From positions 1 to 19,354 of the IMG/VR virus record IMGVR_UViG_2537561977_000019: DNA of 19,354 bases. One strand, given 5' to 3'. Source of the DNA: a virus (taxonomy: Duplodnaviria > Heunggongvirae > Uroviricota > Caudoviricetes). Under the pieces are notes generated by a model that worked only from the letters and a program-made list of their open reading frames with translations, ran no database searches and was not told the origin of the DNA. The position numbers and the translations under genes were made by a program. The number at the start of each line of letters is the position of its first letter. Positions within the stretch are counted from its first letter, which is position 1. Shown piece by piece: positions 2,804 through 18,826 of this stretch.

Positions 2804-2849
2804 CTTAAATCTTATCAACGGTAGACATACAAAGCCCATCGTTGGGAAA

Positions 2850-2878
2850 ATCTTATCCATATTTTTTGAAAAATGCAA
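2850..2878 (-). promoter_or_regulatory. Candidate late promoter (pR'-like) just downstream of Q
   Basis: Minus strand reads TTGCAT (complement of 2873-2878), a 17-nt spacer, then TAAGAT (complement of 2850-2855). It sits about 50 nt upstream of the tR'-like hairpin. Confidence 0.35.
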
Positions 2879-2909
2879 GCATCATGTCGCCATCTTCGGC
2901 AAAAATCAT

Positions 2910-3662: not shown

Positions 3663-3675
3663 GCTCGTTCTCCAC

Positions 3676-4671: not shown

Positions 4672-4672
4672 C

Positions 4673-5482
4673 TCAATGAACGGTATCGAGCAGCTTTAAC
4701 AGCTCAGGGAATCGGGATTCGAAGAAATGCGGCTGCGTCTCGCGCGGATTTGCGGGACTGGTGATGTTCTTGCCAAACATGCAGCCTTTCGCTGTCAGCG
4801 ACCAGAATTTTTTGATGTTGTTAATCGCGGTACGGCTGTATCGTTCGCGCTGCTCGACGATCCCCAGCTTCACCATCTGGTGATATGCCTGATTAGCCGT
4901 CAGGCGGATACCATACTGCTTCAGCAGTGCACTCAGTGACAGCGTGGGGCGGCTTGAGCCATCAGGCGCGTCAGCAGGAGCATCAATGGCATAGCGCGGT
5001 GCCAGATTCGGTAAGCCAACAGCCTCCTGGAGTTTCTGACAGGCCCCAAGCACTGAAGAGTTAGACAGGTTTAACTCCCTGCGCATAAAGTCCAGCAGGA
5101 TCACGCCAGCCTGCATCTTGTCAGCAGCCTGTCCGGATAATTTTTCCGGTGCGCTGGTTACCATATCGAAAGTACGGATCACCTTCAGATGGAATGACGG
5201 GCTGATCCACATTGCATAGGCATACACCAGTTCCTTGCAGACATACGTTCCCCGTTCATTTCCCCCATGAATCACACTCACCGGGTCAACACCCAAATTC
5301 TGGGTGTTGGTCAATTCATGAACAAGCTCAACAGTTTGTTGGCTGGAAAGAAACTTTCCCGGCTCCTTGGTTCTGGCATTTGCACCAGATGCTACTGCTG
5401 CGCGATGCAGATCGTTCAGGCTGTAACGCCCATAAGCATCACGACGAACTTCAATACCATCAATGACCATCAGATTATTCAT
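4673..5482 (-). CDS. KilA-N domain protein
   Basis: N-terminus MNNLMVIDGIEVRRDAYGRYSLNDLHRAA is KilA-N-like. ATG at 5482 has an AGGAG SD 8 nt upstream; the longer ORF start at 5515 would overlap RusA. Confidence 0.7.
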   Translation of the reverse strand: MNNLMVIDGIEVRRDAYGRYSLNDLHRAAVASGANARTKEPGKFLSSQQTVELVHELTNTQNLGVDPVSVIHGGNERGTYVCKELVYAYAMWISPSFHLKVIRTFDMVTSAPEKLSGQAADKMQAGVILLDFMRRELNLSNSSVLGACQKLQEAVGLPNLAPRYAIDAPADAPDGSSRPTLSLSALLKQYGIRLTANQAYHQMVKLGIVEQRERYSRTAINNIKKFWSLTAKGCMFGKNITSPANPRETQPHFFESRFPELLKLLDTVH

Positions 5483-5501
5483 ACTTCGTTTCTCCTCTTG
5501 A

Positions 5502-5891
5502 TCAGGCGGCTGCACCCGCCGTTTTCTCGTACTTACTGATAGTGATCTCGACCTTCCCTTTCGGGATAACCGGTCCCCACTCCACCAGCATTCTTTTCAC
5601 CTGACTGTCGTCTTCCCACACACCCGCGTGGGTCAGGGCGTCAAACAGCGCCTTGTTATAGTTGTCCAGATCGCGGATCCGGTTATCCGGAGGAAACAAC
5701 ACGATCTCCACTGAAGCAGGTGCCGACGTTGGTTTCGGCAGACGACGTAACTGCTCAACTATTGCTGCGCACGCCGCGCTCTGGAATTTTCGCCCCGCCG
5801 AGCTTATCAGGCTCTTACCAGCAAACGCCCCTTTGTTGGAGTGTCGCCAGTACGTGTTCACGCTGGGCGGAAAAGGCAGGATCAGCTTCAT
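5502..5891 (-). CDS. rusA: RusA-family Holliday junction resolvase
   Basis: 129 aa with RusA hallmarks (LPFPPSVNTYWRH ... RDLDNYNKALFDALT ... DDSQV). ATGA overlap with the upstream gene. Confidence 0.85.
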   Translation of the reverse strand: MKLILPFPPSVNTYWRHSNKGAFAGKSLISSAGRKFQSAACAAIVEQLRRLPKPTSAPASVEIVLFPPDNRIRDLDNYNKALFDALTHAGVWEDDSQVKRMLVEWGPVIPKGKVEITISKYEKTAGAAA

Positions 5892-6214
5892 ACTTTCAGG
5901 TCCCTCTCATGTAACCAGTGGGTTGCACGCAGCCTTGCGTTTTCCTCACCGGCAAGCAGTGCGCGGATAATCCCGACCGCCTCGCTGTCGTCGTCCTTCA
6001 CCGCGGTATGAAGCGTTATCCCCCGGGCCACGCCACGCTTTATCGTGATGACGCCTTTTTTCTCCAGTGCGCGAAGATGCTCCACCGCTGCATTCACTGA
6101 ACGGTATCCCAGCATGGTTGCCACCTCCTGATTGGTTGGCGGGAAGCCACGTTCTTTCTGATAAGAAATCAGCATATCCAGCACCTGCTGCTGGCATTGA
6201 GTTAACGTCGTCAT
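5888..6214 (-). CDS. LexA-like winged-helix DNA-binding domain protein with no peptidase domain
   Basis: The first ~70 aa align with the LexA N-terminal domain (LTQCQQQVLDML ... PPTNQEVATMLGYRSVNAAVEHLRALEKKGVITI ... ARGITL). The 108-aa protein lacks the S24 Ser/Lys protease domain. ATGA overlap with the Dam gene. Confidence 0.7.
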   Translation of the reverse strand: MTTLTQCQQQVLDMLISYQKERGFPPTNQEVATMLGYRSVNAAVEHLRALEKKGVITIKRGVARGITLHTAVKDDDSEAVGIIRALLAGEENARLRATHWLHERDLKV

Positions 6215-6864
6215 GCCGCCATCTCCCTGACCAGTTTTTCCGCCTGCTGGCGAACCTGCGCCAGAAACGCCTCACCACATGCCTCAAGTTCATCGCGCCC
6301 GATGTAGCTGATTGCCGGTCCCTTCCAGGTCTTATCGAAAACAGCAATAGCACCAGCGAAGAAAGCGCCTGTCGGCACCTGCTTCTCATCCTTCGGGATA
6401 AACCAGGCAGGCAGTTCAAAACCAATACGCCCGCGAATAAAAGCAATATGGTCCGCATCTTCCGGCCACCACACTTCGCTGGTGGCAGCTTTGATCAGGA
6501 AAACATAGCGCCCACCCTTATCACGCATGGCACTGGCATGTTTCATGATGTAACGCATGCCGGTGATGTATTGCCCCTCATGCTGACTGGCGCGGCTGTA
6601 TGGGGGATTACCAAAGGCAGCCCCTTTAAGCTCCGCAAGACGTTCTGACCAGTCATGCGCCAGCGCGTTGTCTTCCGCCGTGTAATACGCAGCACATTTG
6701 GCGTTATCACCGTCAGTGAACAGATCCAGAACAAACGGGCCAAACAGGGTGTTAATTCCCCAGAAAATGTTGTCCGGCGTGCGCCACTGATCACCCACTT
6801 CCTTCAGTTCATGGGCTGGTTTGTTCCTCAGTTCCACCAGCTCCTGGCAATATTTATTACTCAT
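6211..6864 (-). CDS. Phage Dam-family N6-adenine DNA methyltransferase
   Basis: NPPY motif (AAFGNPPYS) in a ~217-aa protein. ATG at 6864 overlaps the upstream stop (TAATG); an alternative GTG lies at 6897. Confidence 0.8.
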   Translation of the reverse strand: MSNKYCQELVELRNKPAHELKEVGDQWRTPDNIFWGINTLFGPFVLDLFTDGDNAKCAAYYTAEDNALAHDWSERLAELKGAAFGNPPYSRASQHEGQYITGMRYIMKHASAMRDKGGRYVFLIKAATSEVWWPEDADHIAFIRGRIGFELPAWFIPKDEKQVPTGAFFAGAIAVFDKTWKGPAISYIGRDELEACGEAFLAQVRQQAEKLVREMAA

Positions 6865-7352
6865 TAAGCCCCCACGTAATTCCCTGACAGATACCACTCA
6901 TCACCCGATACAGCGCGCTTGCTGCTTTTCCGTAAACACTGCTCACGACGCGCCAGAAAATTGTTTCGTTCTGGCTGGGAGTGGCTTTCACGGAATGCCG
7001 CCATCCACACCGTTGCAGCACGACGGTATAAGCCCCTGGACTCCAGTTCTTCCGCCTGGCGGGTCAGGCACAAAATCACCCGGGGATCGTTAGTGCCGAC
7101 ATAGAAATTGCGCACAGGTCTGGTTTCACGAACTGGTTGTGGTTCCGGCTCCTGCGCTCTCTCAGTCAGGCGTGGGAAATGTCTGCGTGTATCTCCTTCA
7201 CAACGGTGAGCCACACGCCCACTCTGACGTAACTTGCTTGCTGACTGCAGAACGCGCTGCCGTGAGTAACCTGCAAAAGCATCCGCAATGTCTCCGGAAG
7301 TACACCCCGGATGGGCTTCAATGAATTTCTGAACGTCATTCAAAAGACTCAT
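6864..7352 (-). CDS. Hypothetical phage protein (about 162 aa)
   Basis: ORF starts 3 nt after the O-like stop (ATG 7352, AGGGG SD) and is coupled to the downstream Dam gene. Arg-rich; no confident family. Confidence 0.5.
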   Translation of the reverse strand: MSLLNDVQKFIEAHPGCTSGDIADAFAGYSRQRVLQSASKLRQSGRVAHRCEGDTRRHFPRLTERAQEPEPQPVRETRPVRNFYVGTNDPRVILCLTRQAEELESRGLYRRAATVWMAAFRESHSQPERNNFLARREQCLRKSSKRAVSGDEWYLSGNYVGA

Positions 7353-7354
7353 GA

Positions 7355-8173
7355 TCACCCCCTGAATCCTGCCGGGATCTGGCTGTAGTCCACGTTGTCG
7401 TAACTGGCTTTGAAGTACGGGTCCTCGCGTCTGGCTGCAGATACCGCAGGAACTTCCCAGGATTCTTCGAAATGACGATCCGGACCAAAGAACGTGACAG
7501 CCTGTTTCACAAATTGTGTGCCGCTGTTACCCATCGCAGATACCCAGCCCGCGTAGCGTTTCACACCTTCCAGCATGGTTTCGGGGTTTACCCCCTCATT
7601 CAAACGGGCTTTCCAGGCTTTGAAGGCTGCAGATTTTGAATTGCCACCAGCACGTTTGGGATAGGCCAGCCATGCCTGCTCAAACTCCGGAGAGTATTCC
7701 GGTCGGTTTGAACTAACTCGCACAGACTCATCAGCAGATGCACCAACAGCTATTGGTTCATTGACTGGTTCTTTGACTGGTTCAAAAGAGTGACTGGTTC
7801 TGGGTGAATCTCCTGCACTACCCCCTAGTGCAACTCCTGCACTACCTGGTGAATTTGCTGCACCAGATAGTGAATTATTTGCACTACCCCCTAGTGAATC
7901 TCCTGCACCATCCAGATGAAGGAGATAGATATTACTTGAGTTACCTTTTTCACCTTTCCGGGTGACTTTTTTTACCAGCCCGGACTCACAAAGGGCCGCA
8001 ATATGATTCATCACAGAACGTTTGCTAATCTCGCACTGGTCAGCAATATGCTGGTAGCTGGGCCAGCACTCACCCTGATCGCTGGCATTATCAGCCAGCT
8101 TGATCAGAACCAGTTTTCGCAATGGATTACCCACTCGAATTTTCATCGCTTTAACCATCAGCTCCATACTCAT
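7355..8173 (-). CDS. Replication initiator, O-like (N-terminal winged-helix, Gly/Ser/Ala-rich linker)
   Basis: N-terminus LRKLVLIKLADNASDQGECWPSYQHIADQCEISKRSVMNHIAALCESGLVKK resembles phage replication-initiator HTH domains. The linker is encoded by repetitive DNA, as iterons are in lambda O. ATG at 8173 in an ATGA overlap. Confidence 0.65.
   Translation of the reverse strand: MSMELMVKAMKIRVGNPLRKLVLIKLADNASDQGECWPSYQHIADQCEISKRSVMNHIAALCESGLVKKVTRKGEKGNSSNIYLLHLDGAGDSLGGSANNSLSGAANSPGSAGVALGGSAGDSPRTSHSFEPVKEPVNEPIAVGASADESVRVSSNRPEYSPEFEQAWLAYPKRAGGNSKSAAFKAWKARLNEGVNPETMLEGVKRYAGWVSAMGNSGTQFVKQAVTFFGPDRHFEESWEVPAVSAARREDPYFKASYDNVDYSQIPAGFRG
7761..7910. repeat. Iteron-like direct repeat cluster inside the O-like gene (candidate origin)
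   Basis: TGACTGGTTC occurs three times (7762-7771, 7774-7783, 7791-7800); GTGAATCTCCTGCAC twice (7804-7818, 7894-7908); TGCACTACCCCCTAGTG twice (7814-7830, 7880-7896); CTCCTGCACTACC also at 7835-7847. Confidence 0.5.
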
Positions 8174-8394
8174 GCTGCACCTCCGAGATGCTTCATGTTT
8201 TTTCCGGAGCGAAAGGCTATAAGCGGCATACTGACGCGGTAATTACGGCCCAGCGGTTCACAAATCACCTTCTGACATTCACGGTCAACCAGGCTAACAC
8301 GTAGAACATGCCCTGCAGGCGTGGTGTACCACTGACCCGGACGAGGACAACGGAAAGTCTGATTGGTAAAACGTTTGAAAATATTCCGGATCAT
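8170..8394 (-). CDS. Small hypothetical protein (74 aa), possibly DUF4222-like
   Basis: ATGA overlaps at both ends (8391-8394 and 8170-8173) place it in the coupled early-right operon. The family guess is from a weak motif memory only. Confidence 0.45.
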   Translation of the reverse strand: MIRNIFKRFTNQTFRCPRPGQWYTTPAGHVLRVSLVDRECQKVICEPLGRNYRVSMPLIAFRSGKNMKHLGGAA

Positions 8395-9554
8395 TTACGC
8401 CCCCTTACCTCTGAAGGGTTCAGCGACAAATTTATGAGACTGGCCAGTAGCGCCGCGTCGTTGATGCGGTCATACAGACTTACAGCCAGCGGGGATTCGG
8501 CTTTTGCCAACATGGGATAAAGCTGCTGCAGCCAGACCTGATGAATTGATGAAATGTAGGAATAGAGAACGCTGGCGTTATGTGCAACGTCGCTCAGTAC
8601 AGAGGGATTTGAAAGCTGTTTCTCCATCTGGTTAAAGGCATTGATGTATGCCTCTTTGAACCGGGCAGCACGTTTACCCGTGAAACCCATAGCAAGAAAC
8701 GCAAAGCCGTCGCGGGTTATTTGATAGCAAGGAAGTTTGCGAGTACCGCCGTTGGGCTGGCGTACCAAAATTGATGTCTCCGCAAAATTGCGGGCACAAA
8801 ACTCTGGAGAACAATCCAAAATGCGGATCTTTTTCAGAACATCGTCATGACGTTTAGAGAAGAAGTCAGCAACAGCCAAAGAAGATGTAACAGCCTGACC
8901 ATCAACGATGGCAATTTCAGGTTGAGAGAGGGTTGGGAGAGTAGTCATGGTGACAGCCCCGGTAGTCAGTTTTTTAGAAAACTCACCACATGGGACGCCA
9001 ATCACAGAGGTGGTGAGACGTACAGGGTTGGCGTTACCGGAGACTACCGAACCCGGCCCGACCGAAGTCGGCCCTGTACGCCCCACCATAATTTGGGCGT
9101 AGCAATGCTCATGACACGAAAAAACCGCATGAGCGCGGTTATGCTCAGTAATCAATTTCAGGACGCCAATCCCGGCACCCGTTTTATAAGGTGCCTGAAC
9201 AGTGTAACGTCCCGGAATGGCAGAATCAATGTGCTGGTGGTCCTTCACACTCAACAAAATCACGCCTGAATTTCCACAAAGGACTAAAGCACTCATGCGG
9301 GTAGTCTTTGCGAAGATAGATAACGCGCTGTGTTTCTGGCTCCCAACGAATAACATGAACATAAAGTCCTCTTCCGTCACGAAACCAGCGGTTAAGTTCC
9401 TGCACAACTCGCCCCCCACAGTCAGGTAAAGTTCTCTGTGGTTACTTACAGCCAGGTGATTTGGTAATCTGCATTCATGCCGTAACAACAGGTGTGCAGC
9501 GACACTGACCACCAGCTGTTGCGACAAACGGTTATTTGCCGTTAAACTGTTCAT
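8391..9554 (-). CDS. Rha-family regulatory-domain protein with a ~200-aa N-terminal extension of unknown function
   Basis: Residues ~205-330 match the Rha pattern (AVADFFSKRHDDVLKKIRIL ... RDGFAFLAMGFTGKRAARFKEAYINAFNQME). ATG at 9554 overlaps the upstream stop (ATGA) with a GGAG SD; the frame stays open for 387 codons. An internal ATG at 8948 would give an Rha-only protein. Confidence 0.6.
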   Translation of the reverse strand: MNSLTANNRLSQQLVVSVAAHLLLRHECRLPNHLAVSNHRELYLTVGGELCRNLTAGFVTEEDFMFMLFVGSQKHSALSIFAKTTRMSALVLCGNSGVILLSVKDHQHIDSAIPGRYTVQAPYKTGAGIGVLKLITEHNRAHAVFSCHEHCYAQIMVGRTGPTSVGPGSVVSGNANPVRLTTSVIGVPCGEFSKKLTTGAVTMTTLPTLSQPEIAIVDGQAVTSSLAVADFFSKRHDDVLKKIRILDCSPEFCARNFAETSILVRQPNGGTRKLPCYQITRDGFAFLAMGFTGKRAARFKEAYINAFNQMEKQLSNPSVLSDVAHNASVLYSYISSIHQVWLQQLYPMLAKAESPLAVSLYDRINDAALLASLINLSLNPSEVRGRK

Positions 9555-10135
9555 GCGTTAGTTTCTCCACAACCAGAAGCAATCGACGCCACGACGCCCG
9601 GAGCTGCACACTCGCGGGCGTTACTCTTTTCCGGCGCACAAAAAACACGAAATAACAGTGTTAAATGCTCCTGCCACTTCGCCATTACTTGGTAGCTGTT
9701 CTCTTCGATTTGCTCACGCTCAGCTTGGTCAATAACTCCATCAGCAGTTGCCTTGCGTAAGTACTGGGAATGCTTGCCAATCCATTCTATTGACTCCATC
9801 AGCCGCTGATTAATGTCACCATTGTCAATGTCATCAATGACCACCAGCGGCACAAACACCCCATTACTACGACGGGCTATTGCATCTGTTACATGCCTGG
9901 TACCACTGGCATCCTGTAAAACCATGGCCCACTCAAGTGGAAAAATTTGATCCCCACCGCTACGCAGTCTGTTATGCAATTGATCTTTTGCTGGGGTGAT
10001 ATCATCAGATTTATACAAACCAAGAATTTCTGCTGCTTCCTCATAGCCATGAGGTAAATCAGCAATCGTTCTTCGTATTGCTGCCACCAGCCATGCTGGT
10101 TGTTTATCAACTTTCCATTCAGGTTCTTTACCCAC
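9551..10135 (-). CDS. Regulator in the cII position (possibly YdaT-like), about 195 aa
   Basis: GTG at 10135 has a GAGGA SD 7 nt upstream and lies 28 nt after the cro stop. The ORF track's upstream ATGs (10246, 10213) have no SD and would overlap cro. Function is inferred from position only. Confidence 0.45.
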   Translation of the reverse strand: MGKEPEWKVDKQPAWLVAAIRRTIADLPHGYEEAAEILGLYKSDDITPAKDQLHNRLRSGGDQIFPLEWAMVLQDASGTRHVTDAIARRSNGVFVPLVVIDDIDNGDINQRLMESIEWIGKHSQYLRKATADGVIDQAEREQIEENSYQVMAKWQEHLTLLFRVFCAPEKSNARECAAPGVVASIASGCGETNA

Positions 10136-10163
10136 GGTTAATTCCTCATTTCTGTGGTTACGT

Positions 10164-10427
10164 TTACGCAGCTGAACCGCTAACTTTTGAATAGCACTCA
10201 GGTAATCCATCATTTGGATTGGGGTAAATATCAGGACGCAGTTCATGAGGGGTCACGGACCAGTTTCCCAACTCACAAAGTTGTAAAACCCGTTCTGACG
10301 GGACTTGATTGTTAATTACCCAATTAGCGACGGATTGAGTGGACTTAAAACCAAAGCGACGGGCTACTTCAGATAAAGATTTTCCCGCAGCTTTTACTGC
10401 TTTCTCTGTGTAGTTTTGAGATGACAT
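10164..10427 (-). CDS. Cro-like HTH regulator (YdaS-like)
   Basis: 87 aa with an HTH segment (LSEVARRFGFKSTQSVANWV), divergent from the CI-like gene; GAGGAG SD before the ATG at 10427. Confidence 0.75.
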   Translation of the reverse strand: MSSQNYTEKAVKAAGKSLSEVARRFGFKSTQSVANWVINNQVPSERVLQLCELGNWSVTPHELRPDIYPNPNDGLPECYSKVSGSAA

Positions 10428-10533
10428 ACCTTTCTCCTCTGAAATTCAGAGGGATAATGCTACTTAAAATAGCAAAATGCAACTACTTAAAATAGAAATG
10501 ACTAGCGTATGTGATGTGAGTAATCTTCTACCT
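10428..10533. promoter_or_regulatory. Immunity-region operator/promoter interval (OR with divergent pR and pRM)
   Basis: 106-bp interval between divergent cro-like and cI-like starts. Contains two exact 13-bp direct repeats CTACTTAAAATAG (10460-10472, 10483-10495). Minus strand carries TTGCAT-17-CATTAT as a pR-like element. Confidence 0.5.
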
Positions 10534-11238
10534 ATGGTAGAAGAACAGAAGTATCCAGATTTCGCCAAGAGACTAAACGAGCTAATGACAAACAAGGGAA
10601 TTTCTGTCACCCAACTCAAAAGTCTTGTGGGCGTTACATATGAAATGGCGCGGCGATACACAATCGGCGCTGCGAAGCCTCGTGCCTCTGTCATGAATAA
10701 ACTTGCATTGGCTCTGGGGGTATCAGCTTCATATTTAGAATATGGTGTTGGCGAGAGAGAAGGATGTAAGGAAATGACAAGCATCCCCAATCCAACAAAA
10801 CCCGATGTATACAGGATAGAAGTTTTGGATCTTAGCGTTAGCGCAGGACCTGGGACCTATATGCTTTCAGACTATGTTGATGTGCTCTACGCCATTGAGT
10901 TCACAACAGAACATGCCCGTTCTCTTTTCGGCAACCGTTCTCAGGATGATATTAAGGTTATGACTGTAAATGGCGATAGTATGTCCCCTACTCTCGTTTC
11001 CGGAGACCGACTGTTTGTCGACATTTCTGTTCGTCACTTCCAGACTGATGGAGTTTACTCTTTCGTTTACGGTAAGACTTTTCATGTCAAACGTCTTCAA
11101 ATGCAAGGTGACAAGCTAGCCGTTCTTTCGGATAACCCCGCCTATGAGAAATGGTATATCGATGAAAAATCGCAGGATCAGCTTTATGTAATGGGCAAGG
11201 CGTTGATTCACGAATCTATAAAATACAACCGATTGTAA
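10534..11238 (+). CDS. CI-like prophage repressor (HTH plus S24 LexA-like peptidase domain)
   Basis: N-terminal HTH (FAKRLNELMTNKGISVTQLKSLVG) and C-terminal S24 motifs (VNGDSMSPTL ... GDRLFVD ... KRL). Start is uncertain: in-frame ATGs at 10477, 10498 and 10534, none with an SD, consistent with a leaderless pRM transcript. Confidence 0.8.
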   Translation: MVEEQKYPDFAKRLNELMTNKGISVTQLKSLVGVTYEMARRYTIGAAKPRASVMNKLALALGVSASYLEYGVGEREGCKEMTSIPNPTKPDVYRIEVLDLSVSAGPGTYMLSDYVDVLYAIEFTTEHARSLFGNRSQDDIKVMTVNGDSMSPTLVSGDRLFVDISVRHFQTDGVYSFVYGKTFHVKRLQMQGDKLAVLSDNPAYEKWYIDEKSQDQLYVMGKALIHESIKYNRL

Positions 11239-11282
11239 AACTCAATCCTTTCAGGATTAAAAGATCTAAAAGGATAATAATA

Positions 11283-11690
11283 ATGAAATCTGAACTATTT
11301 CATAACGAAGCAAATTCAGAAATTATCACCGCAGATGAGTTTATTGATTTCATAAACTCTTTCAAAAAGCCTTTAATTTGCCAAATTTGCGGAAATCAAT
11401 CATGGAGTGTAGTCGGTACTCTAGAACTTGAAGTTGAAGACAATCAGCCAAAACATCACGTAATCGAAGTTCTCAGCTATGCCCAATACAAACCTGAAAC
11501 TGATAGCGCTATAAATTATCCTGGTGGTATGCCGCTGTTTCGAATCACCTGTGATCACTGTGCACATGTACTTCTTTTTTCTTATAAAAAAGCTAGATCA
11601 TTGATCCAAAAAAGAAAAATGAAAAAGAAGAGGATGGGAAATGACGCGACCTTATCTCAGAGCAGTACCAAACTGTGGATCTGGTATTGA
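11283..11690 (+). CDS. Hypothetical Zn-ribbon protein (135 aa) in an AT-rich cassette co-oriented with cI
   Basis: ATG at 11283 with an AAGGA SD, 45 nt after the cI stop. Two CxxC pairs (CQICGN and CDHC) and a basic C-terminus. AT-rich composition by eye. Confidence 0.55.
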   Translation: MKSELFHNEANSEIITADEFIDFINSFKKPLICQICGNQSWSVVGTLELEVEDNQPKHHVIEVLSYAQYKPETDSAINYPGGMPLFRITCDHCAHVLLFSYKKARSLIQKRKMKKKRMGNDATLSQSSTKLWIWY

Positions 11691-12273
11691 TAAGTGTGAC
11701 CTTTACCCCAATGTTAAGAACAGGCTGCGCGTCGGTATAGAAGAAATGTATACTGATTTTATCGAATCCGCAGATGAAACTTACAAAACTGATGGGGGAA
11801 ATAAAATGTCATCAGTTAGTCGAGAAGAAATTCAAGCACTTTTAGCTGCCAATAAAGCAGAAATGGAGTCCATTGCATCCTCTATTAGAGTTGAAATGGC
11901 TTTATCTCGCGAGAACACAAACGTTCAGCTAGCATCTCTAAATTCAGCCATCAATTCTATCTCTTCGAAAATCGAAGGCAAAATGGACAGTGTTGACGGG
12001 GATGTGAAGGCCATCAATGGTAGATTCGAAGGTATACAAGGCCAAATTACTGGAATAAATACAGCCATTAGTGGTATTCAATCTGGAATTTCTACCAGAC
12101 TTGCTATTTTTGGAGTTATCATTGCGGTCATAGTTGCATTACCTAGCATAATTTCTGCTTTTAAAGATACTTCGCCAGTAGTTCAACCAGTTACACAACA
12201 ACCAAGTGTTAAACATCTCAACCAAGAACCAATTACTCCACAAGTATTACCTCCGCAGGGAAAAGCAAACTAA
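11641..12273 (+). CDS. Hypothetical coiled-coil protein with a single C-terminal transmembrane helix
   Basis: Two candidate starts, each with a good SD: 11641 (GAGGA, overlaps the previous ORF by 50 nt) and 11806 (GGGGGA). Heptad-like Ser/Ile/Gly repeats, then LAIFGVIIAVIVALPSIISAF and a Pro/Gln-rich tail. Confidence 0.55.
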   Translation: MTRPYLRAVPNCGSGIDKCDLYPNVKNRLRVGIEEMYTDFIESADETYKTDGGNKMSSVSREEIQALLAANKAEMESIASSIRVEMALSRENTNVQLASLNSAINSISSKIEGKMDSVDGDVKAINGRFEGIQGQITGINTAISGIQSGISTRLAIFGVIIAVIVALPSIISAFKDTSPVVQPVTQQPSVKHLNQEPITPQVLPPQGKAN

Positions 12274-12297
12274 ACCGGCTTTATGCCGGTTTTTTTC
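12274..12297 (+). terminator. Intrinsic terminator ending the cI-linked cassette
   Basis: Stem ACCGGC (12274-12279) / GCCGGT (12285-12290), loop TTTAT, followed by TTTTTTC. Confidence 0.75.
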
Positions 12298-12399
12298 TAT
12301 ACAAACGCCCCCTCTTTGTCTTGAATCACATCACAACACATTTAAAAAACATTTTAAATTCAAAGCATTAAACGCATCAACGCATATCAAACAAATTAT

Positions 12400-12448
12400 C
12401 TACTTTTAGTTGTTGATTTTTGCTACTTTTGGTAGCAGAATTATTTTA
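12400..12448 (+). promoter_or_regulatory. Candidate pL/OL: plus-strand promoter overlapping operator-like sites
   Basis: TTGCTA (12420-12425), 16-nt spacer, TATTTT (12442-12447). Overlaps CTACTTTTGGTAG (12423-12435) and sits next to CTACTTTTAG (12400-12409), both sharing the CTACTT...TAG ends of the OR repeats. Confidence 0.4.
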
Positions 12449-12520
12449 ACGACAACGAACAGGCAGGACGCCCACGAAGTAGCCGCCTGGGGCATATGAA
12501 GTCCAGGATGATTCGTTAGC

Positions 12521-12547
12521 AACAAAAAAGCGCCCTACAGGACGCTT
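12521..12547 (-). terminator. Intrinsic terminator for the convergent minus-strand gene
   Basis: Stem AAGCG / CGCTT with a 10-nt loop, followed on the minus strand by TTTTTTGT. Confidence 0.45.
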
Positions 12548-12585
12548 AGCTCTTTAACAATCTGGATATCCACAACAGTAGTAAT

Positions 12586-13077
12586 CTACAGATTGCCGTT
12601 AAGTTTTCTGGACAACTCCTCAATGGATGGAGGCGATACGTAATCCGGATTTTTATTCATCAGAAACTTATTTTCACAGTGGAGGCACCTGCTTTTATGA
12701 AAAAGCTCATCTTCGCTAACCGGGAATGGTTGAAGTATCGATACTATCTTTTGTCCAAAACATTTTGGGCAAAGATGCATGGTTATGCTGCCACCGTTCA
12801 CGATTACCTCCTTCGAGTATACAAAAGTACCCGACTCAAGTTGGTTAAGGATATAGCCTTCCGTCTGAGCCTCAAAGTTTTCGAATTCTGCAATTTTAGC
12901 TTTGAGAGAAGCATTTATTTCTTGATAAGAGCCCACCAGTTCAACGAGAGACACGCATTCGCGCTGAATAGACGCAAGCTTTGAGTTCAGCTCACCAATA
13001 GCCGCATTTACTTCAGCTTGAGTTTTTGCCTCGTTCATTAGTTTTGCAATCTGGGCTGTTTCACGAATAGCCGTCAT
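12586..13077 (-). CDS. Hypothetical coiled-coil protein with a C-terminal Zn-ribbon (about 163 aa)
   Basis: AT-rich ORF convergent on the cI cassette. Likely start ATG 13077 or GTG 13101 (AAGAG SD); the longer ORF-track N-terminus is Arg/Pro-rich and judged non-coding. C-terminus HLCPKCFGQ ... CLHCENKF. Confidence 0.5.
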   Translation of the reverse strand: MTAIRETAQIAKLMNEAKTQAEVNAAIGELNSKLASIQRECVSLVELVGSYQEINASLKAKIAEFENFEAQTEGYILNQLESGTFVYSKEVIVNGGSITMHLCPKCFGQKIVSILQPFPVSEDELFHKSRCLHCENKFLMNKNPDYVSPPSIEELSRKLNGNL

Positions 13078-13115
13078 TGCTGCCGTTAATTCAGCGATCA
13101 CATTGAATACTCTTA

Positions 13116-13169
13116 TTGTTGTTGGGGATATCCAGATTAACCGAATCCTTGTTGTTGGGGAATAACCAG
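13116..13169. repeat. Tandem direct repeat TTGTTGTTGGGGA-TA-CCAG (two copies)
   Basis: 13116-13135 TTGTTGTTGGGGATATCCAG and 13149-13169 TTGTTGTTGGGGAATAACCAG, just upstream of the minus-strand gene start. Confidence 0.4.
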
Positions 13170-13388
13170 GTCCACCTCGCCTGATGTGGCTAAAAGCAGG
13201 CACATAACAGCTAAGTATTTTCAACCAGAGAGAATCCTTAGCGTTGTGGTGAATGCGGCTCAGCGCACGCGGGTTAAGGTTGAGGCTGACAGTCGACCTT
13301 CTGTGGATACCCACCCGTCTGGTGTGCAACCTTCGCCAGGCACCGGGAGGCACCCGGCACCACAACTTTATGCTGTGTGTAGTCCTGG

Positions 13389-13433
13389 CGGTACCAGTTT
13401 GTACCCTTGCTTCCGGCTGGTACCGTCCTTTTT
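13389..13433 (+). terminator. Terminator-like hairpin with T-tract in the early-left leader
   Basis: 9-bp arms CGGTACCAG (13389-13397) / CTGGTACCG (13417-13425), then TCCTTTTT. About 140 nt upstream of the first early-left gene. Confidence 0.4.
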
Positions 13434-13570
13434 ACAAAACAGAGAAGAGCATCACCGGACGACGGGCTCATAACCCAATCCATCCGGGCGGCTGCCACCG
13501 CAGGTGTTCTTCTCTGTTTTGTGGAGAAACCAACCGGCCTTGCAGGGTCGATATGATGAGGAGCAGCAAA

Positions 13571-13933
13571 ATGGCTAGCGAACGCAGTACTGATGTGCAG
13601 GCATTTATCGGGGAGTTGGACGGCGGCGTATTTGAAACCAAAATCGGCGCAGTTCTCAGTGAAGTCGCTTCAGGTGTGATGAACACGAAAACCAAAGGTA
13701 AGGTCTCACTCAACCTGGAAATCGAACCATTTGATGAGAACCGTGTGAAAATCAAACACAAACTCTCATATGTTCGCCCGACTAACCGCGGGAAAATTTC
13801 CGAAGAAGACACCACCGAAACGCCGATGTATGTCAATCGCGGTGGTCGCCTGACTATTCTGCAGGAAGACCAGGGACAATTACTGACTCTTGCCGGTGAA
13901 CCTGACGGAAAACTCCGCGCAGCAGGTCATTAA
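13571..13933 (+). CDS. Hypothetical early-left protein, YfdP-like (about 120 aa)
   Basis: ATG 13571 with a GAGGAG SD; the longer ORF-track N-terminus is GC-rich leader. Family name is a tentative match based on size and gene order. Confidence 0.5.
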   Translation: MASERSTDVQAFIGELDGGVFETKIGAVLSEVASGVMNTKTKGKVSLNLEIEPFDENRVKIKHKLSYVRPTNRGKISEEDTTETPMYVNRGGRLTILQEDQGQLLTLAGEPDGKLRAAGH

Positions 13934-13998
13934 TATCGTTCTTAATTAACCGATTATTTATCTCATCACTGAATATCTTTATATAGTGAGGACTTATT

Positions 13999-14823
13999 AT
14001 GTCTCAGAACTTAGACGCAACCGCAATTAATCAAATCCATGCCCTTATTTCTGCTCAGGGTGTTAATGAAATTATCAGTAAGATTGGTGCCGATGCTGTG
14101 GCATTACCTGAAAATTTCCGCATTCATGATCTGGAAAAATTTAATTTAAATCGCTTCCGTTTCCGTGGTGCGCTTTCCACTGCCAGCATCGATGACTTTA
14201 CCCGTTATTCTAAAGATCTTGCAGATGAAGGCACCCGCTGCTTTATCGATGCCGATAATATGCGTGCCGTCAGTGTGCTTAACCTGGGTACTATTGATGA
14301 ACCAGGTCACGCAGATAACACTGCCACTCTCAAACTGAAAAAGACAGCACCGTTCTCTGCTCTGTTGTCTGTTAACGGCGAGCGTAACTCCCAGAAGTCA
14401 CTGGCAGAATGGATTGAAGACTGGGCCGACTACCTTGTGGGCTTTGATGCTAATGGTGACGCCATTCAGGCAACCAAAGCGGCTGCGGCGATCCGTAAAA
14501 TCACAATTGAAGCGAACCAGACCGCTGATTTTGAAGATAATGACTTCAGCGGCAAACGCTCCCTGATGGAGTCTGTCGAAGCGAAGACCAAAGACATTAT
14601 GCCTGTGGCATTTGAATTTAAATGCGTTCCGTTTGAAGGTCTGAAAGAACGTCCGTTTAAATTACGCCTCAGCATTATCACTGGCGATCGTCCTGTACTG
14701 GTTCTGCGCATTATTCAGCTGGAAGCGATGCAGGAAGAAATGGCTAACGAATTTCGTGATCTGCTTGTTGAGAAATTCAAAGACAGCAAAGTAGAAACCT
14801 TTATTGGTACTTTCACCGCCTGA
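13999..14823 (+). CDS. YfdQ-like (DUF2303) protein, 274 aa
   Basis: ATG 13999 with a GAGGA SD. Size and neighbours (HD-domain gene next) resemble the yfdPQRS prophage block; family recalled, not computed. Confidence 0.6.
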
Positions 14824-14951
14824 TTTCATTACTGCAAATGCCCCTGCGGGGGCATTTATGGAAACGTAATTAACTCAATAATCACCGGATGGTGAGAGCT
14901 TCCTTTTAGCAGAATTCAGCGCGGTGCAGCGCATATAAAGTGGAGAACGAA

Positions 14952-15488
14952 ATGTCATTTATTAAAACTTTTTCCGGGAAGCATTTTTATTATGACAAGA
15001 TAAATAAAGACGACATCGTGATTAACGATATCGCAGTTTCCCTTTCAAATATCTGTCGCTTTGCAGGACATCTTTCACACTTCTACAGTGTCGCCCAGCA
15101 TGCGGTGCTTTGCAGCCAGCTGGTGCCGCAGGAATTTGCTTTTGAAGCGTTAATGCATGATGCAACAGAAGCATATTGCCAAGACATCCCCGCGCCACTG
15201 AAACGACTTCTTCCTGACTATAAACGGATGGAAGAAAAAATAGACGCCGTAATCCGTGAGAAATACGGGTTACCTCCTGTTATGAGCACGCCAGTGAAAT
15301 ATGCCGATCTCATTATGCTGGCAACCGAACGCCGTGATCTCGGGCTTGATGATGGCTCTTTCTGGCCTGTTCTGGAAGGTATCCCGGCAACAGAGATGTT
15401 CAAAGTTATTCCACTGTCGCCAGGCCATGCCTATGGGATGTTTATGGAGCGTTTTAACGAGTTATCGGAGTTACGCAAATGCGCATGA
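14952..15488 (+). CDS. HD-domain phosphohydrolase (YfdR-like 5'-deoxynucleotidase)
   Basis: HD-domain metal ligands (FAGHLSHFYSVAQHAVL ... LMHDATEAY). ATG 14952 with a GGAG SD gives 178 aa. Confidence 0.7.
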   Translation: MSFIKTFSGKHFYYDKINKDDIVINDIAVSLSNICRFAGHLSHFYSVAQHAVLCSQLVPQEFAFEALMHDATEAYCQDIPAPLKRLLPDYKRMEEKIDAVIREKYGLPPVMSTPVKYADLIMLATERRDLGLDDGSFWPVLEGIPATEMFKVIPLSPGHAYGMFMERFNELSELRKCA

Positions 15489-15829
15489 ATGTTTTCGAAA
15501 TGGAAGGGTTTCTTCGCGGGAAATGTGTACCGCGAGATCTGAAAGTGAATGAAACAAATGCTGAGTATCTGGTGCGTAAATTCGATGAAGTACGTGCTGA
15601 GGCTCGCAACGAGGGTATTAACTATACCGCAAGCCGTCTTGCTGCTGCTTTCAATCACGGATTTATCAATAAGCCTTTGGCTGAAGTTTTCGACGTTACA
15701 CGCATGATTCTGTCAGCAAAAGAAGAGTTAGCTAATGAATCGCATCCGATTGATGGCCTGTCCGGTGAATATGCAGAGAAATCCCTTGAAGAATGGGCGG
15801 AACGGCTTCGCAAAGGAGGCAGCCAGTGA
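15485..15829 (+). CDS. Hypothetical protein, YfdS-like (about 114 aa)
   Basis: ATG 15485 overlaps the upstream stop (ATGA); an alternative ATG lies at 15479. No motif recognised. Confidence 0.5.
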   Translation: MNVFEMEGFLRGKCVPRDLKVNETNAEYLVRKFDEVRAEARNEGINYTASRLAAAFNHGFINKPLAEVFDVTRMILSAKEELANESHPIDGLSGEYAEKSLEEWAERLRKGGSQ

Positions 15830-16299
15830 CTGGACATGCAGCAATCCTCGACATGTGCTGTGGCAGTCGCATGTTCTGGTTCGATAAGAATGACGACCGG
15901 GCGATATTTAGCGATATCAGAAAGGAAGAGCACACATTGTGTGATGGACGACGCCTGATTATCAGTCCTGATCTGATAGCTGATTTTCGTGCACTACCAT
16001 TTGCAGACGCATCTTTTTCGATGGTTATATTCGACCCTCCGCATCTTGAGCGTGTTGGTGATAACGCCTGGATGGGAAAGAAATATGGACGGCTGAATAA
16101 AGATACCTGGCGTGATGATTTGCGGCAGGGATTTAAAGAAGCCTTTCGTGTGTTGCGTCCATCCGGCGTTCTGATTTTTAAATGGAATGAAACGCAAATA
16201 CCTGTTCGCCAGATATTGGTACTGACCGACAGAAAACCTGTTATCGGTCAACGAACAGGAAAAAACGATAAAACCCACTGGATTATTTTTATAAAATAG
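15826..16299 (+). CDS. Small SAM-dependent methyltransferase-like protein (157 aa)
   Basis: Motif I-like (AILDMCCGS) followed by a DPPH motif (VIFDPPHLE). GTG 15826 sits 6 nt after an AAGGAGG SD and overlaps the upstream stop (GTGA). Confidence 0.6.
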   Translation: MTGHAAILDMCCGSRMFWFDKNDDRAIFSDIRKEEHTLCDGRRLIISPDLIADFRALPFADASFSMVIFDPPHLERVGDNAWMGKKYGRLNKDTWRDDLRQGFKEAFRVLRPSGVLIFKWNETQIPVRQILVLTDRKPVIGQRTGKNDKTHWIIFIK

Positions 16300-16445
16300 G
16301 CATCCAGTGAGTAGGTTCGTAAGGTTACAGATACGTATATCTGAATAATTAAATTCAGTTCTGTAAATAAAATTTAATCCTTAACCGGAGGGATTCCTGC
16401 ACCCTCAGAACATCAGGAGACCGCCCGAAAGGGCGGTAATGAAAA

Positions 16446-16862
16446 ATGGCTGAATTAACCAAATGGCTACAAAACACGATTACCGGAATTGAAACGGTAG
16501 TAGACGATAAATCGTTTGTATGTGATGAAATAGTATTCAAAATCGATGTGGTTAAAAACGTACTTACCGCATTTAAAGTCGCGCTGGCATCGCTGGAAGC
16601 AGAGCCGATAGGTTTCCGTTGCAGGCGCAATGATAACCTTGGTGACTGGAGTTACGTATATCATCGAGAGCCAGATGATTTTGAGCGCAAACATTTAGTG
16701 ATAGAGGGCATTTACGCCGCCCCTCCAGTGCTAGTAGTACCGGAAGAAAAACCAATGCCTAATCCTCTTAGCATGTACGCGGTCGATGCTGTTGCCGCTA
16801 TTGCAGAGGTGAGAGGCTGGAACGCCTGCCGTGCCGCTATGCTTCAGGGGAAAGGAGAGTGA
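16446..16862 (+). CDS. Hypothetical protein (138 aa)
   Basis: ATG 16446, preceded by a GNRA-loop hairpin and a distant AGGAGA; followed by a coupled downstream gene. Confidence 0.5.
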   Translation: MAELTKWLQNTITGIETVVDDKSFVCDEIVFKIDVVKNVLTAFKVALASLEAEPIGFRCRRNDNLGDWSYVYHREPDDFERKHLVIEGIYAAPPVLVVPEEKPMPNPLSMYAVDAVAAIAEVRGWNACRAAMLQGKGE

Positions 16863-16863
16863 T

Positions 16864-17445
16864 ATGACCACTATAACCGATAAGAAACAGTATCCCAGCG
16901 ATCAATATCTTAATGAGCTGATCACCAACATGGAGTTTGCTGCAAGGGCACCAGTTGAAGTCGTGAGAGCGATGGCAGCAGAGCTACAGAAGCGGCGCGA
17001 AGCTGATAGTGCAGAACCTGTAAGCCAAACTTACAACTTGCCAGAATTAATCGAAGGCATGGAAGTTTCCATTGATGTAAGCACTTGTGATGCTGATTTA
17101 GGTAATCGCTATTTCGGCACCGTAACCGAGGCGTTAGAACTTGATACTGCCAAGAATGGTTACATCCTCCTGGTTCAGGACGCAGAGCCAAACTTCGATG
17201 TAAATGGCAACTCTCCGGTAACTCCGGATGGTTGGATAAGCTGTAGTGATCGAATGCCTGAAAAGGGCCAGAACGTGCTTATTTCGGTGAATTTCGATAG
17301 CTCTCTGGTTGAACCGCTAATATGCTCCGCACGCTATACCGGAAGCACCTTTCGGCGCGGAGATGCAACGATTAAGCCGGGTAATGGTATTGAGCAAGCA
17401 ACTCACTGGATGCTGCTACCGGAACCGCCGCAGGAGGTGAAGTGA
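16864..17445 (+). CDS. DUF551-like phage protein
   Basis: ATG 16864 with an AGGAGAG SD; C-terminal DGWISCSDRMPEKGQNVLI resembles the DUF551 signature. Confidence 0.6.
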   Translation: MTTITDKKQYPSDQYLNELITNMEFAARAPVEVVRAMAAELQKRREADSAEPVSQTYNLPELIEGMEVSIDVSTCDADLGNRYFGTVTEALELDTAKNGYILLVQDAEPNFDVNGNSPVTPDGWISCSDRMPEKGQNVLISVNFDSSLVEPLICSARYTGSTFRRGDATIKPGNGIEQATHWMLLPEPPQEVK

Positions 17446-18017
17446 TGAACAACTTAATGATCGACCTTGAGACGATGGGGAAAAATAAGGATGCACCGAT
17501 CGTTTCCATTGGCGCGGTGTTCTTCACTCCAGAAACCGGAGACATCGGACAAGAATTCTATACGGTTGTCAGCCTGGACAGTGCTATGGAGCAAGGGGCC
17601 ACACCTGACGGCGATACCATCCTGTGGTGGTTGAAACAAAGCCCTGAAGCACGAGCTGCAATCTGTATTGATGATACTTTGTCGATCAGCGATGCACTCT
17701 CTGAACTGAGCCATTTCATTAATCGGCACGCAGACAATACGAAATATTTAAAAGTTTGGGGTAACGGGGCCACCTTCGACAACGTAATTTTACGCGGAGC
17801 TTATGAACGAGCGGGACAAATCTGCCCGTGGGCGTACTGGAATGACCACGATGTACGCACGATCGTTACGCTTGGGCGTTCCATCGGATTCGACCCAAAA
17901 ATGGACATGCCTTTCGATGGCGAACGGCACAACGCCCTGGCTGATGCCCGTCATCAGGCAAAATATGTTTCCGCTATCTGGCAGAAACTAATTCCTGCCA
18001 CCAGCACAGAATTATGA
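17445..18017 (+). CDS. DEDDh-type 3'-5' exonuclease
   Basis: Exo I motif (MIDLETMG) and Exo III H-x4-D motif (HNALADA). ATG 17445 overlaps the upstream stop, with a GGAGG SD. Confidence 0.7.
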   Translation: MNNLMIDLETMGKNKDAPIVSIGAVFFTPETGDIGQEFYTVVSLDSAMEQGATPDGDTILWWLKQSPEARAAICIDDTLSISDALSELSHFINRHADNTKYLKVWGNGATFDNVILRGAYERAGQICPWAYWNDHDVRTIVTLGRSIGFDPKMDMPFDGERHNALADARHQAKYVSAIWQKLIPATSTEL

Positions 18018-18053
18018 TTTTCCCGGGTGCAGCCGGTTTTGATGGAGAAAATT

Positions 18054-18326
18054 ATGAACACCTTGTTTTTACTGATGGCTGAATTCAATACCCCTAACAT
18101 TGAACTCTCAGCAGTTAGCCAAAAGTACTTTGGCATGAGTCCAGCCACGGCAGAAGCAAAAGCAAACGCTTGTAAGTTGCCCGTTCCAACATATCGCATC
18201 GGCACATCACAAAAAGCAAAACGTTGCATCAATATTCAGGATCTTGCGGAATACATAGACAAAAGGCGAGAAGAAGGGCGTGCTGAGTGGGAAAGGGTCA
18301 GAACCCATAAACAAAGGCTCATTTAA
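18054..18326 (+). CDS. PrtN/excisionase-like small DNA-binding protein
   Basis: Pattern SQKYFGMSPATAEAKANACKLPVPTYRIGTSQKAKRCINIQDLAEYIDKRR; ATG 18054 with a GGAGAAA SD. Last gene of the plus-strand operon. Confidence 0.55.
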   Translation: MNTLFLLMAEFNTPNIELSAVSQKYFGMSPATAEAKANACKLPVPTYRIGTSQKAKRCINIQDLAEYIDKRREEGRAEWERVRTHKQRLI

Positions 18327-18335
18327 ATAGAATAT

Positions 18336-18365
18336 GAATAAACCCATCCAAAGATGGGTTTATTC
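18336..18365. terminator. Bidirectional terminator hairpin between convergent genes
   Basis: 13-bp perfect arms GAATAAACCCATC (18336-18348) / GATGGGTTTATTC (18353-18365) with loop CAAA, AT-rich on both flanks. Confidence 0.55.
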
Positions 18366-18821: not shown

Positions 18822-18826
18822 AAGTA

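Follow-up and report, generated by a model that had tools for sequence, protein, structure and literature searches.

A two-gene unit in the repressor operon of lambdoid prophages pairs a conserved tail-anchored coiled-coil protein with exchangeable small partners

Introduction

What are the two AT-rich genes that directly follow the cI-type repressor in the viral DNA record IMGVR_UViG_2537561977_000019 of IMG/VR, and what might they do for the prophage that carries them? The stretch that we analysed, called the window throughout this text, comprises positions 1 to 19,354 of that record (19,354 nt; Duplodnaviria; Heunggongvirae; Uroviricota; Caudoviricetes) and is, by its sequence, part of an Escherichia coli lambdoid prophage. 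Near-identical DNA is present in E. coli chromosomes, where its neighbours are Q, RusA, PerC, Rha, YmfL, yfdP/Q/R and integrase genes. The two genes, ORF1 and ORF2, which together we call the cassette, occupy the region between cI and N, a mosaic hotspot that also holds rexAB and bstA (PMC8585504, PMC7067206). Both of these characterised occupants of the slot are exclusion or abortive-infection genes that are transcribed with cI (PMC8585504, PMC7067206). An earlier note, written from the letters of the window, had proposed the pair as a candidate new superinfection-exclusion or defence module. Here we describe the cassette, which the sequence comparisons indicate to be one form of a modular accessory unit of two genes that Enterobacterales lambdoid prophages have in their repressor operon, and weigh what such a unit might be for.

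Results

Position and signals of the cassette

The cassette lies between cI and the second copy of a putative operator (12421-12437) and is co-oriented with cI. The argument of the earlier note that this is the rexAB position was borne out, as rexAB is placed in the same way in lambda, and the homologues of the cassette in phages HK244, HK542 and HK97 are placed alike. A spacer of 44 nt separates cI from ORF1, ORF1 overlaps ORF2, and the cI-ORF1-ORF2 unit is closed on the + strand by an intrinsic terminator, a hairpin at 12272-12292 followed by T7 and reaching to 12299, which is the counterpart of lambda Timm. The hairpin has a folding energy of -12.8 kcal/mol (z -4.4), and none of 200 shuffled sequences folded equally well. 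A terminator search of the spacer between cI and ORF1 returned no terminator-like site. The cassette has a GC content of 38.1%, compared with 43.2% in cI and 47.5% in the window as a whole; two AT-rich genes directly after a CI-like repressor, in the same orientation and followed by a strong terminator, were thus all present as the earlier note had described them. ORF1 and ORF2 are predicted to be co-transcribed with cI in the lysogen.

The cI-ORF1 spacer itself contains a predicted RNA hairpin (11245..11275, + strand; -9.3 kcal/mol, z -2.9) that pairs AUCCUUU with the ORF1 Shine-Dalgarno sequence AAAGGAU and could limit the translation of ORF1. The hairpin at 11245-11259 was also considered as the end of cI transcription and was rejected, since no T-run follows it.

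Architecture of ORF2

ORF2 (11641..12273, + strand) encodes 210 aa. Its start at 11641 lies behind AAGAGGA and is supported by the PGAP annotation and by phrog_5820, a family of unknown function that the protein matches at 6.8e-69 over profile positions 2-195 of 200. The protein opens with a variable N-terminal region (residues 1-57; 11641..11811, + strand), which is hypervariable in our alignments A2, A5 and A7 and which we propose as the docking region for ORF1. The conserved cytoplasmic helix that follows (residues 58-115; 11812..11985, + strand) bears the hallmark of the family, S-R-E-E-I-x-A-L-L-A-A-N-K-A-E ... R-E, and has invariant columns at E63, A66, L68, K72, E74 and R90 in the same three alignments. 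In the AlphaFold2 (AF2) model, a helix at 61-114 is predicted with a predicted local distance difference test score (pLDDT) of 80-87, and the N-terminus has low pLDDT. Glycine-rich heptads of the form I-x-G-x-I-x-G (residues ~111-153; 11971..12099, + strand), assigned from the heptad layout, lead into the membrane helix, and the indels found in this region across the family are multiples of 7. The single transmembrane helix (residues 154-172; 12100..12156, + strand) gives a Kyte-Doolittle 19-residue maximum of 2.73 and coincides with an AF2 helix at 149-174. It is followed by a Pro/Gln-rich C-terminal tail (residues 175-210; 12163..12270, + strand) that has 7 Pro and 6 Gln among its 36 residues, holds the invariant P188 and, judging from the missing signal peptide and the C-terminal anchor, is predicted to be periplasmic. 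With one hydrophobic segment at 154-172 and a Pro/Gln-rich tail, the description of ORF2 in the earlier note as a tail-anchored coiled-coil membrane protein was confirmed. By hydropathy, ORF2 is membrane-bound and ORF1 soluble, and the conserved part of ORF2 is its cytoplasmic helix.

An in-frame ATG (M56; 11806..11808, + strand), preceded by GGGGGAAATAAA, lies immediately ahead of the conserved core and could be an internal start. An ATG 1-8 codons before the core is present in 33 of 44 distinct family sequences, compared with 13.8% expected from the Met frequency in the variable N-termini. This core-proximal ATG is often preceded by an AGGAGG-like string, and some natural family members start exactly there. 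It may initiate translation internally and give a short isoform without the docking tail, or it may be left over from an ancestral start. We ruled out that the second gene consists only of the ORF that opens with this ATG (11806 in the window), as PGAP and phrog_5820 support the 210-aa form.

The ORF2 family

A profile search with ORF2 yielded ~124 clusters at 90% identity, and the members with a named source are all from Enterobacterales. The family is defined by a consensus helix, [S/T]-[R/K]-x-E-[L/I]-x-A-x-L-x-A-N-K-A-E-V ... M-A-x-W-R-E (W/S-R-E), behind which come a coiled coil and a single membrane helix at the C-terminus, and which is preceded by a hypervariable N-terminus of 40-110 residues; the window protein fits this definition. 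Since homologues keep their length and key residues down to ~25-30% identity, ORF1 and ORF2 are real genes.

The genomic context of the family is highly regular. Among 11 diverse ORF2 homologues on contigs, 10 are located immediately downstream of a same-strand prophage repressor and have a small gene (84-154 aa) just before them. In a scan of IMG/VR that gave 80 loci, all complete loci but the Xenorhabdus-like L055 had a small ORF directly upstream (gap -17 to +39 nt), and in most loci a repressor homologue lay on the same strand, 290-1250 nt upstream. Over the ~90 loci inspected altogether, the ORF2-type gene was just downstream of the repressor in nearly all. The repressors adjoining the module are of many unrelated types. 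These comparisons establish that the ORF2 gene belongs to the family and that it is obligately paired with a partner gene. The single exception among the 11 contigs comes from Xenorhabdus (L011, 4001-4441), where the homologue is preceded by an arc/mnt/antirepressor (immI-like) region and adjoins a RelBE pair. This short form of 146 aa has no small partner directly upstream, the preceding gene being a 276-aa ORF6N antirepressor.

In 5426 complete E. coli genomes, the window variant occurs 9 times, the HK542 variant 51 times and the HK97 variant 52 times (112 in total), and all of them are annotated as hypothetical proteins. The claim that the pair is new was overstated, as it represents a rare variant of a wider module that is already present in model phages under the label of hypothetical proteins. 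The ~1600 E. coli matches of the wider region were dismissed as a sign of a common cassette, since only DNA downstream of 12441 was matched.

The family members differ in their membrane anchors. Anchor variant I, the type found in the window, carries a tail resembling QPIIIQVPQ; variant II is essentially tailless, ending just after the membrane helix; and variant III, exemplified by HK97 gp48, has a different anchor plus a tail. The tail motif QP-I/T-I/V-I-Q/Y-V with the invariant P188 is kept in variants I and III. Together with the location of the anchor in the inner membrane, this conservation would suit superinfection exclusion by a block of genome entry, in which the periplasmic Pro/Gln-rich tail would hinder the injection machinery and the partner would only aid assembly or stability. 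Known exclusion proteins such as HK97 gp15 and P22 SieA are likewise small, prophage-expressed inner-membrane proteins. However, the lack of a tail in variant II speaks against such a block, and because this variant has no periplasmic part, a function shared by the family would be exerted in the cytoplasm or in the membrane itself. Furthermore, the most conserved segment and the whole variable module, consisting of the partner and the N-terminus, are cytoplasmic, which is hard to reconcile with a periplasmic block, and ORF2 has no match to SieB or other exclusion families in Pfam, PF14163 (SieB) being absent among its Pfam matches at E <= 0.1. We consider a block of genome entry by the tail improbable.

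Exchange of partners together with the ORF2 N-terminus

The small proteins encoded ahead of the ORF2-type genes fall into at least three families that could not be related to each other by BLAST or hhalign (A, B and C1+C2). Partner family A is beta-rich, ~145-160 aa long and corresponds to phrog_5893 (18 non-redundant pairs), and partner family B is the ORF1 zinc ribbon, phrog_4293 (8 non-redundant pairs). Families C1 and C2 (~95-110 aa; 23 non-redundant pairs) are mutually related with an hhalign probability of 94%, and C3 is a small group, including HK97 gp49, with weak, non-significant similarity to C1/C2 (4 non-redundant pairs). Two further non-redundant pairs have singleton partners without relatives among the pairs.

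The identity of the partner follows the N-terminus of the membrane protein. When two loci have a similar ORF2 N-terminus, they share the partner family in 114 of 114 comparisons, against 21% expected by chance, a statistic that is inflated by kinship between loci. The stronger argument comes from natural chimeras: partner types A and B are each seen with all three anchor variants. Consistent sequence features were also read from the lists of N-termini. The ORF2-type proteins paired with family A share the motif [R/K]-[L/F]-K-V-x-x-G-[S/T]-D-F-x-x-x-F-[D/E]-N, and several of those paired with a zinc ribbon share [I/V/L]-D-[K/L]-x-[D/E]-x-x-P; both motifs were taken from these lists and from the translation of locus L014. 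The co-variation and the chimeras together indicate that the recombining unit is the partner plus the docking tail, with the conserved helix as the junction. A partner that recombines together with this N-terminus would in turn point to a physical contact between ORF1 and ORF2 residues 1-57. Thus, the comparisons demonstrate that unrelated partner families have been exchanged, with matching changes of the N-terminus.

ORF1, the zinc-ribbon partner

In the window, the partner is ORF1 (11283..11690, + strand), a small cytoplasmic protein of family B. ORF1 is a predicted zinc ribbon with four cysteines in two CxxC knuckles, C33/C36 and C90/C93, which are kept across homologues and placed in a confident beta-rich model; C33, C36, W41, C90 and C93 are invariant across 16 ORF1 homologue sequences. 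The AF2 model (pLDDT 85.6; predicted template modelling score 0.70) consists of a short helix, a beta-sheet with the two zinc knuckles and a basic C-terminal helix, and has no significant structural relatives in PDB or BFVD. A hydropathy scan found no hydrophobic segment in ORF1. The protein matches phrog_4293, whose function is unknown, at 2.3e-31 over profile positions 3-120 of 124. Its relatives amounted to 4 clusters in a word-based search and to 13 representatives in an exhaustive profile search, and the protein query against phage genomes gave no match. Divergent ORF1 homologues (25-36% identity) likewise have a repressor ahead of them and a single-pass coiled-coil membrane protein behind them, and on one contig (L013) the distant homologue is followed by an ORF2-family gene. 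A distant ORF1 homologue in L014/L015 (4001-4877; phrog_4293, 7.8e-18) has as its partner a 173-aa protein of reverse layout, with a cytoplasmic tail, a membrane helix at ~66-92 and then the coiled coil. This pair indicates that the zinc-ribbon partner is not tied to one membrane-protein architecture.

The earlier note had described ORF1 as a 135-aa double-CxxC zinc-ribbon protein. The cysteines stood, but the length of 135 aa is specific to the window and the homologues have 120 aa. The 120-aa form is found in the near-identical E. coli locus, in 9 of 9 complete cassette-bearing E. coli genomes and in every homologue from the sequence search, and its stop codon overlaps the ORF2 start in the form ATGA. 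The length in the window is explained by the loss of one A from an A6GA6 tract, which shifts the last 9 codons: the alignments reveal an A6GA5 tract (11608..11619, + strand) with a 1-base deletion. The deletion removes the ATGA stop-start overlap with ORF2 and leaves the conserved core of ORF1 (residues 1-111) untouched. Three states of the tract were observed, A6GA6 (120 aa; the nine complete E. coli genomes, L020 and L021), A6GA5 (the window, 135 aa) and A5GA5 (L022, 112 aa), and they reflect either homopolymer sequencing errors or slippage-prone variation. In the window, the frameshift may weaken or unbalance the system by altering the last residues of ORF1 and losing the coupled stop-start.

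The tight two-gene operon with its stop-start overlap, in which a small soluble protein is encoded ahead of a membrane protein, could also suggest an addiction pair of the toxin-antitoxin type, in which a toxic membrane protein would be neutralised by the small partner and the prophage would be stabilised. The possible short isoform without the docking region could then act as an unregulated toxin. However, no known toxin-antitoxin family has this gene order and these sizes, and no toxin or antitoxin match was obtained in Pfam, NCBIfam or PADLOC. In addition, the partner is frameshifted and the membrane gene intact both in the window and in L022, which argues against strong toxicity. We regard an addiction function as very improbable.

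Database searches and distant likenesses

Neither ORF1 nor ORF2 reached a curated threshold in Pfam or NCBIfam, and neither had a significant match among the PADLOC models (2023 release); the other members of the ORF2 family had no significant PADLOC match either. The best PADLOC match of ORF2 was PbeC (E 0.0014, 15 bits), which is coiled-coil noise, and the Baculo_PEP_C, NPV_P10 and PbeC matches of both proteins or their relatives, all below thresholds, were discarded for the same reason. The statement of the earlier note that the two genes have no recognisable family therefore holds for Pfam, NCBIfam and PADLOC but not for PHROGs, in which phrog_4293 and phrog_5820 match. In a search of PDB sequences, the ORF2 profile found only trimeric coiled coils (haemagglutinin HA2 and sigma-1) and a weak SmhB match.

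Two distant likenesses deserve description. First, PF07798 (DUF1640/CCDC90-like) scored 14.7 bits with the window ORF2 and 23.5-31.7 bits with its distant relatives, compared with a gathering threshold of 33.5. DUF1640/CCDC90-like proteins such as MCUR1 have a coiled-coil stalk and one C-terminal membrane helix, as does ORF2, and the distant ORF2 relatives align in a consistent register to the stalk and anchor half of PF07798 (~65-171 of 175). DUF1640 proteins have been reported to reside in membranes and to bear a coiled-coil stalk at the C-terminus, at whose start lies a beta-layer motif, [aliphatic]-A-T-K-[polar]-[D/E] (PMC4786415). The start of the ORF2 stalk, V-S-R-E-E-I ([aliphatic]-[S/T]-[R/K]-x-E), is similar to this motif but shorter. 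In contrast to PF07798, the ORF2 family lacks the head domain and has the variable tail instead, and its context is exclusively that of prophage immunity regions. A relationship between ORF2 and DUF1640 is plausible from these alignments.

Such a relationship would suit a role outside defence, in which ORF2 would be a DUF1640/MCUR1-like scaffold that tethers a small prophage protein and thereby alters host physiology or tunes the prophage's own induction or lysis. The register-consistent matches of the distant members to the stalk and anchor half, at 24-32 bits, agree with this role, as does the description of DUF1640 proteins as coiled-coil-stalk membrane proteins (PMC4786415). It would also account for the absence of any toxic or enzymatic domain in the Pfam and NCBIfam searches and for the strict linkage of the module to repressors of many types. 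Nevertheless, every PF07798 score is below the curated cut-off, the head domain is absent, and the exchange of partners, the hypervariable docking N-terminus and the mosaic slot form a pattern that one would expect of an arms race rather than of housekeeping regulators. We judge the scaffold role to be unlikely.

Second, the heptad and membrane-helix region of ORF2 bears a weak, repeated likeness to the membrane-inserting heads of alpha-pore-forming toxins of the tripartite type (SmhB, E 0.015 over 56 residues; AhlB, 0.67; MakE, 1.2e-4). The likeness to SmhB consists of a glycine-rich amphipathic helix that leads into a hydrophobic helix, with G-I-N-T-A-I-S-G in ORF2 corresponding to G-I-N-A-A-I-D-G in SmhB. 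The MakE match reaches 21 bits against a cut-off of 360 bits; ~55 residues align, and the rest of the toxin fold is absent from ORF2.

Occupants of the slot and the closest known systems

The slot behind cI holds different genes in closely related prophages. In E. coli prophages whose cI and cro are ~94% identical, a ParA-family gene takes the place of the cassette, which identifies the slot as exchangeable cargo. In L002 (4010-5086) and L101 (4563-5648), the gene in the post-cI slot encodes a ParA-family ATPase of 358-361 aa whose only PADLOC match is the candidate PDC-M28B, covering the P-loop only (E 5.7e-9, residues 3-40). This ATPase may be a different accessory or defence gene.

The closest relatives in characterised phages are found in the same slot. 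The HK542/HK244 pair (HK24405/HK24404; 144 aa and 206 aa) is located, like the window cassette, between cI and the annotated Timm/oL/pL, and in HK244 the annotated Timm follows the pair at the same place as the terminator in the window. The membrane protein of the pair is a true ORF2 homologue, with 77% identity over residues 55-175 in tblastn for HK542. HK97 gp49 (88 aa) and gp48 (216 aa) lie between cI (gp50) and N (gp47), and gp48 is an ORF2 homologue with the same core, its variant III anchor being unlike that of the window. The partners are not zinc ribbons: that of HK542 belongs to the beta-rich family A and that of HK97 to family C3.

Lambda RexA and RexB resemble the cassette in that they are a soluble and a membrane protein encoded between cI and oL/pL, in the orientation of cI and ended by a terminator. 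RexAB is expressed in the lysogen and excludes specific phages by depolarising the membrane. Apart from its position, the cassette differs from RexAB in each protein trait compared. There is no sequence relationship of RexA or RexB to ORF1 or ORF2. RexA carries DUF4747, whereas ORF1 in its 120-aa form is a predicted zinc ribbon that matched no Pfam family at E <= 0.1 and had no match in PADLOC. RexB resides in the membrane, and the RexB-like proteins gp43 of CarolAnn and gp31 of Sbash are each predicted to have four membrane helices (PMC6426606), whereas ORF2 has a single C-terminal helix and a long coiled coil and no PADLOC RexB match. The gp44/gp43 pair of Gordonia phage CarolAnn and the gp30/gp31 pair of mycobacteriophage Sbash are expressed from the prophage and confer abortive-type defence, and the CarolAnn pair is co-transcribed with the repressor (PMC6426606). 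Like the cassette, they are two-gene pairs of a cytoplasmic and a membrane protein, but they are RexAB-like (DUF4747 and a four-helix membrane protein), unrelated in sequence and found in actinobacteriophages. BstA of the Salmonella prophage BTP1 causes abortive infection and is encoded directly downstream of cI under the cI promoter, a synteny found in many prophages (PMC8585504, PMC7067206). It differs from the cassette in being a single soluble protein that localises to phage DNA replication sites; it is unrelated in sequence and had no PADLOC match here. The kind of system, a cI-linked two-gene pair of a membrane and a soluble protein, is known, and its proteins and modular architecture were previously undescribed.

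The surrounding immunity region

The cI-type repressor (10477..11238, + strand) has a helix-turn-helix (HTH) domain and an S24 peptidase domain (Pfam PF00717, 2e-16, and PF01381, 2e-5; phrog_4, 3e-50). The mechanical ORF starts at 10477 and has 253 aa, and PGAP places the start of an identical gene 19 codons downstream (equivalent to 10534; 234 aa). Divergent from cI are a cro-like regulator with a YdaS-type HTH (10164..10427, - strand; Pfam PF15943, 4.6e-11; phrog_35, 2e-20) and, on the same strand, a cII/YmfL-like gene (9551-10246). A pattern search for the 17-bp palindrome-like pattern TGCTACTT-N4-TAGCA found exactly two copies in the window, TGCTACTTAAAATAGCA at 10458..10474, between cro and cI, and TGCTACTTTTGGTAGCA at 12421..12437, beyond the cassette. 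From their positions, and for the former also from the existence of the second exact copy, we read them as putative oR and oL, respectively. Weaker copies occur at 10481-10497 and 10526-10542, and the latter overlaps the PGAP start of cI. Around the putative oL, a pL-like promoter (TTGATT, 17 nt, CAGAAT) was read by eye and is a candidate only.

Several further features were observed outside the cI-cassette unit. Rfam matches to a C4 antisense RNA (82 bits; 9006-9093, - strand) and to the Hfq-binding small RNA isrK (60 bits; 9118-9194, - strand) both fall within a long mechanical ORF upstream of a Rha/Ash-type regulator (8391-9554). These RNAs indicate a P1/P7-like, antisense-controlled antirepressor module in the rightward operon, and the 5' end of the 387-aa mechanical ORF that holds them probably lies too far upstream. 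Four tRNA genes (Gly-tcc, Thr-tgt, Arg-tct and Met-cat) are clustered at 896-1205 (- strand) in the late-regulatory region of the prophage. Finally, the mechanical ORF 12586-13365 contains a convergent gene of the 'ECs1072 family' (12586-13020, - strand; phrog_1244, 2.8e-59), which is located on the opposite strand, with the putative pL on one side and the leftward early genes on the other. This gene encodes a coiled coil with a C-terminal CxxC...CxxC motif, has its own terminator (12547-12528) and may be another moron.

Discussion

We infer that the cassette most likely serves for exclusion or abortive infection, is expressed in the lysogen and works in the manner of RexAB, to which it is unrelated. 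This proposal is derived from the known occupants of the slot (rexAB and bstA), from the parallel with CarolAnn gp43/gp44 and from the arms-race-like modularity of the family. In the mechanism that we propose, the pair would be transcribed with cI in the lysogen, and ORF2 would assemble into an oligomer, probably a trimer, whose coiled-coil stalk stands on the cytoplasmic side of the inner membrane and is anchored there by the C-terminal helix. ORF1, the small cytoplasmic partner, would dock on the variable N-terminal tail of ORF2 and serve as the specificity or sensor part. Upon sensing a superinfecting phage, the complex would stop it at the membrane. In the preferred version of this last step, the glycine-rich heptads beside the membrane helix would insert and collapse membrane integrity, resulting in a RexAB-like abortive infection; in a less likely version, genome entry would be blocked. 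We give a phage-exclusion function, with abortive infection through membrane perturbation preferred over a block of genome entry, about even chances.

Several points weigh against this proposal. No phenotype evidence was found for any family member, and our literature search found no functional or experimental study of any of them, including those of HK244/HK542 and HK97 gp48/gp49. No domain, fold or catalogue match, including a significant PADLOC match, ties ORF1 or ORF2 to a known exclusion or defence protein, and no toxin, nuclease or channel domain was recognisable in either of them in the Pfam and NCBIfam scans. The likeness to toxin heads is a lead only, as it is below accepted thresholds and could be due to composition alone. 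The monomer AF2 model of ORF2 is of low confidence (pLDDT 61). Co-transcription with cI is predicted from the sequence only, the co-variation statistic carries the inflation by kinship mentioned above, and ORF1 is frameshifted in the window.

A more speculative form of the exclusion and abortive-infection proposal, which we think improbable as a whole, would treat the family as a polymorphic, membrane-tethered immunity platform. A conserved stalk would receive exchangeable sensor cassettes, each made of a partner and its docking peptide; a short isoform from the internal start, unable to dock a partner, would set the trigger threshold in the manner of holin and antiholin; and the heptads would permeabilise the inner membrane.

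As HK97 carries a member of the family, the hypothesis is directly testable. All members currently bear the label 'hypothetical protein'; to define the family, its pairing rule and the predicted docking is therefore new annotation, even if the function is not defence. If the exclusion and abortive-infection proposal is true, HK97 and prophages across Enterobacterales carry an uncharacterised counterpart of RexAB made of unrelated proteins. HK97 lysogens, the small size of the proteins and the natural chimeras would then offer a tractable system for studying a membrane effector that is coupled to interchangeable sensors. In this family the specificity part is apparently swapped and the membrane part kept, which would help to explain the mosaicism of the slot between cI and N.

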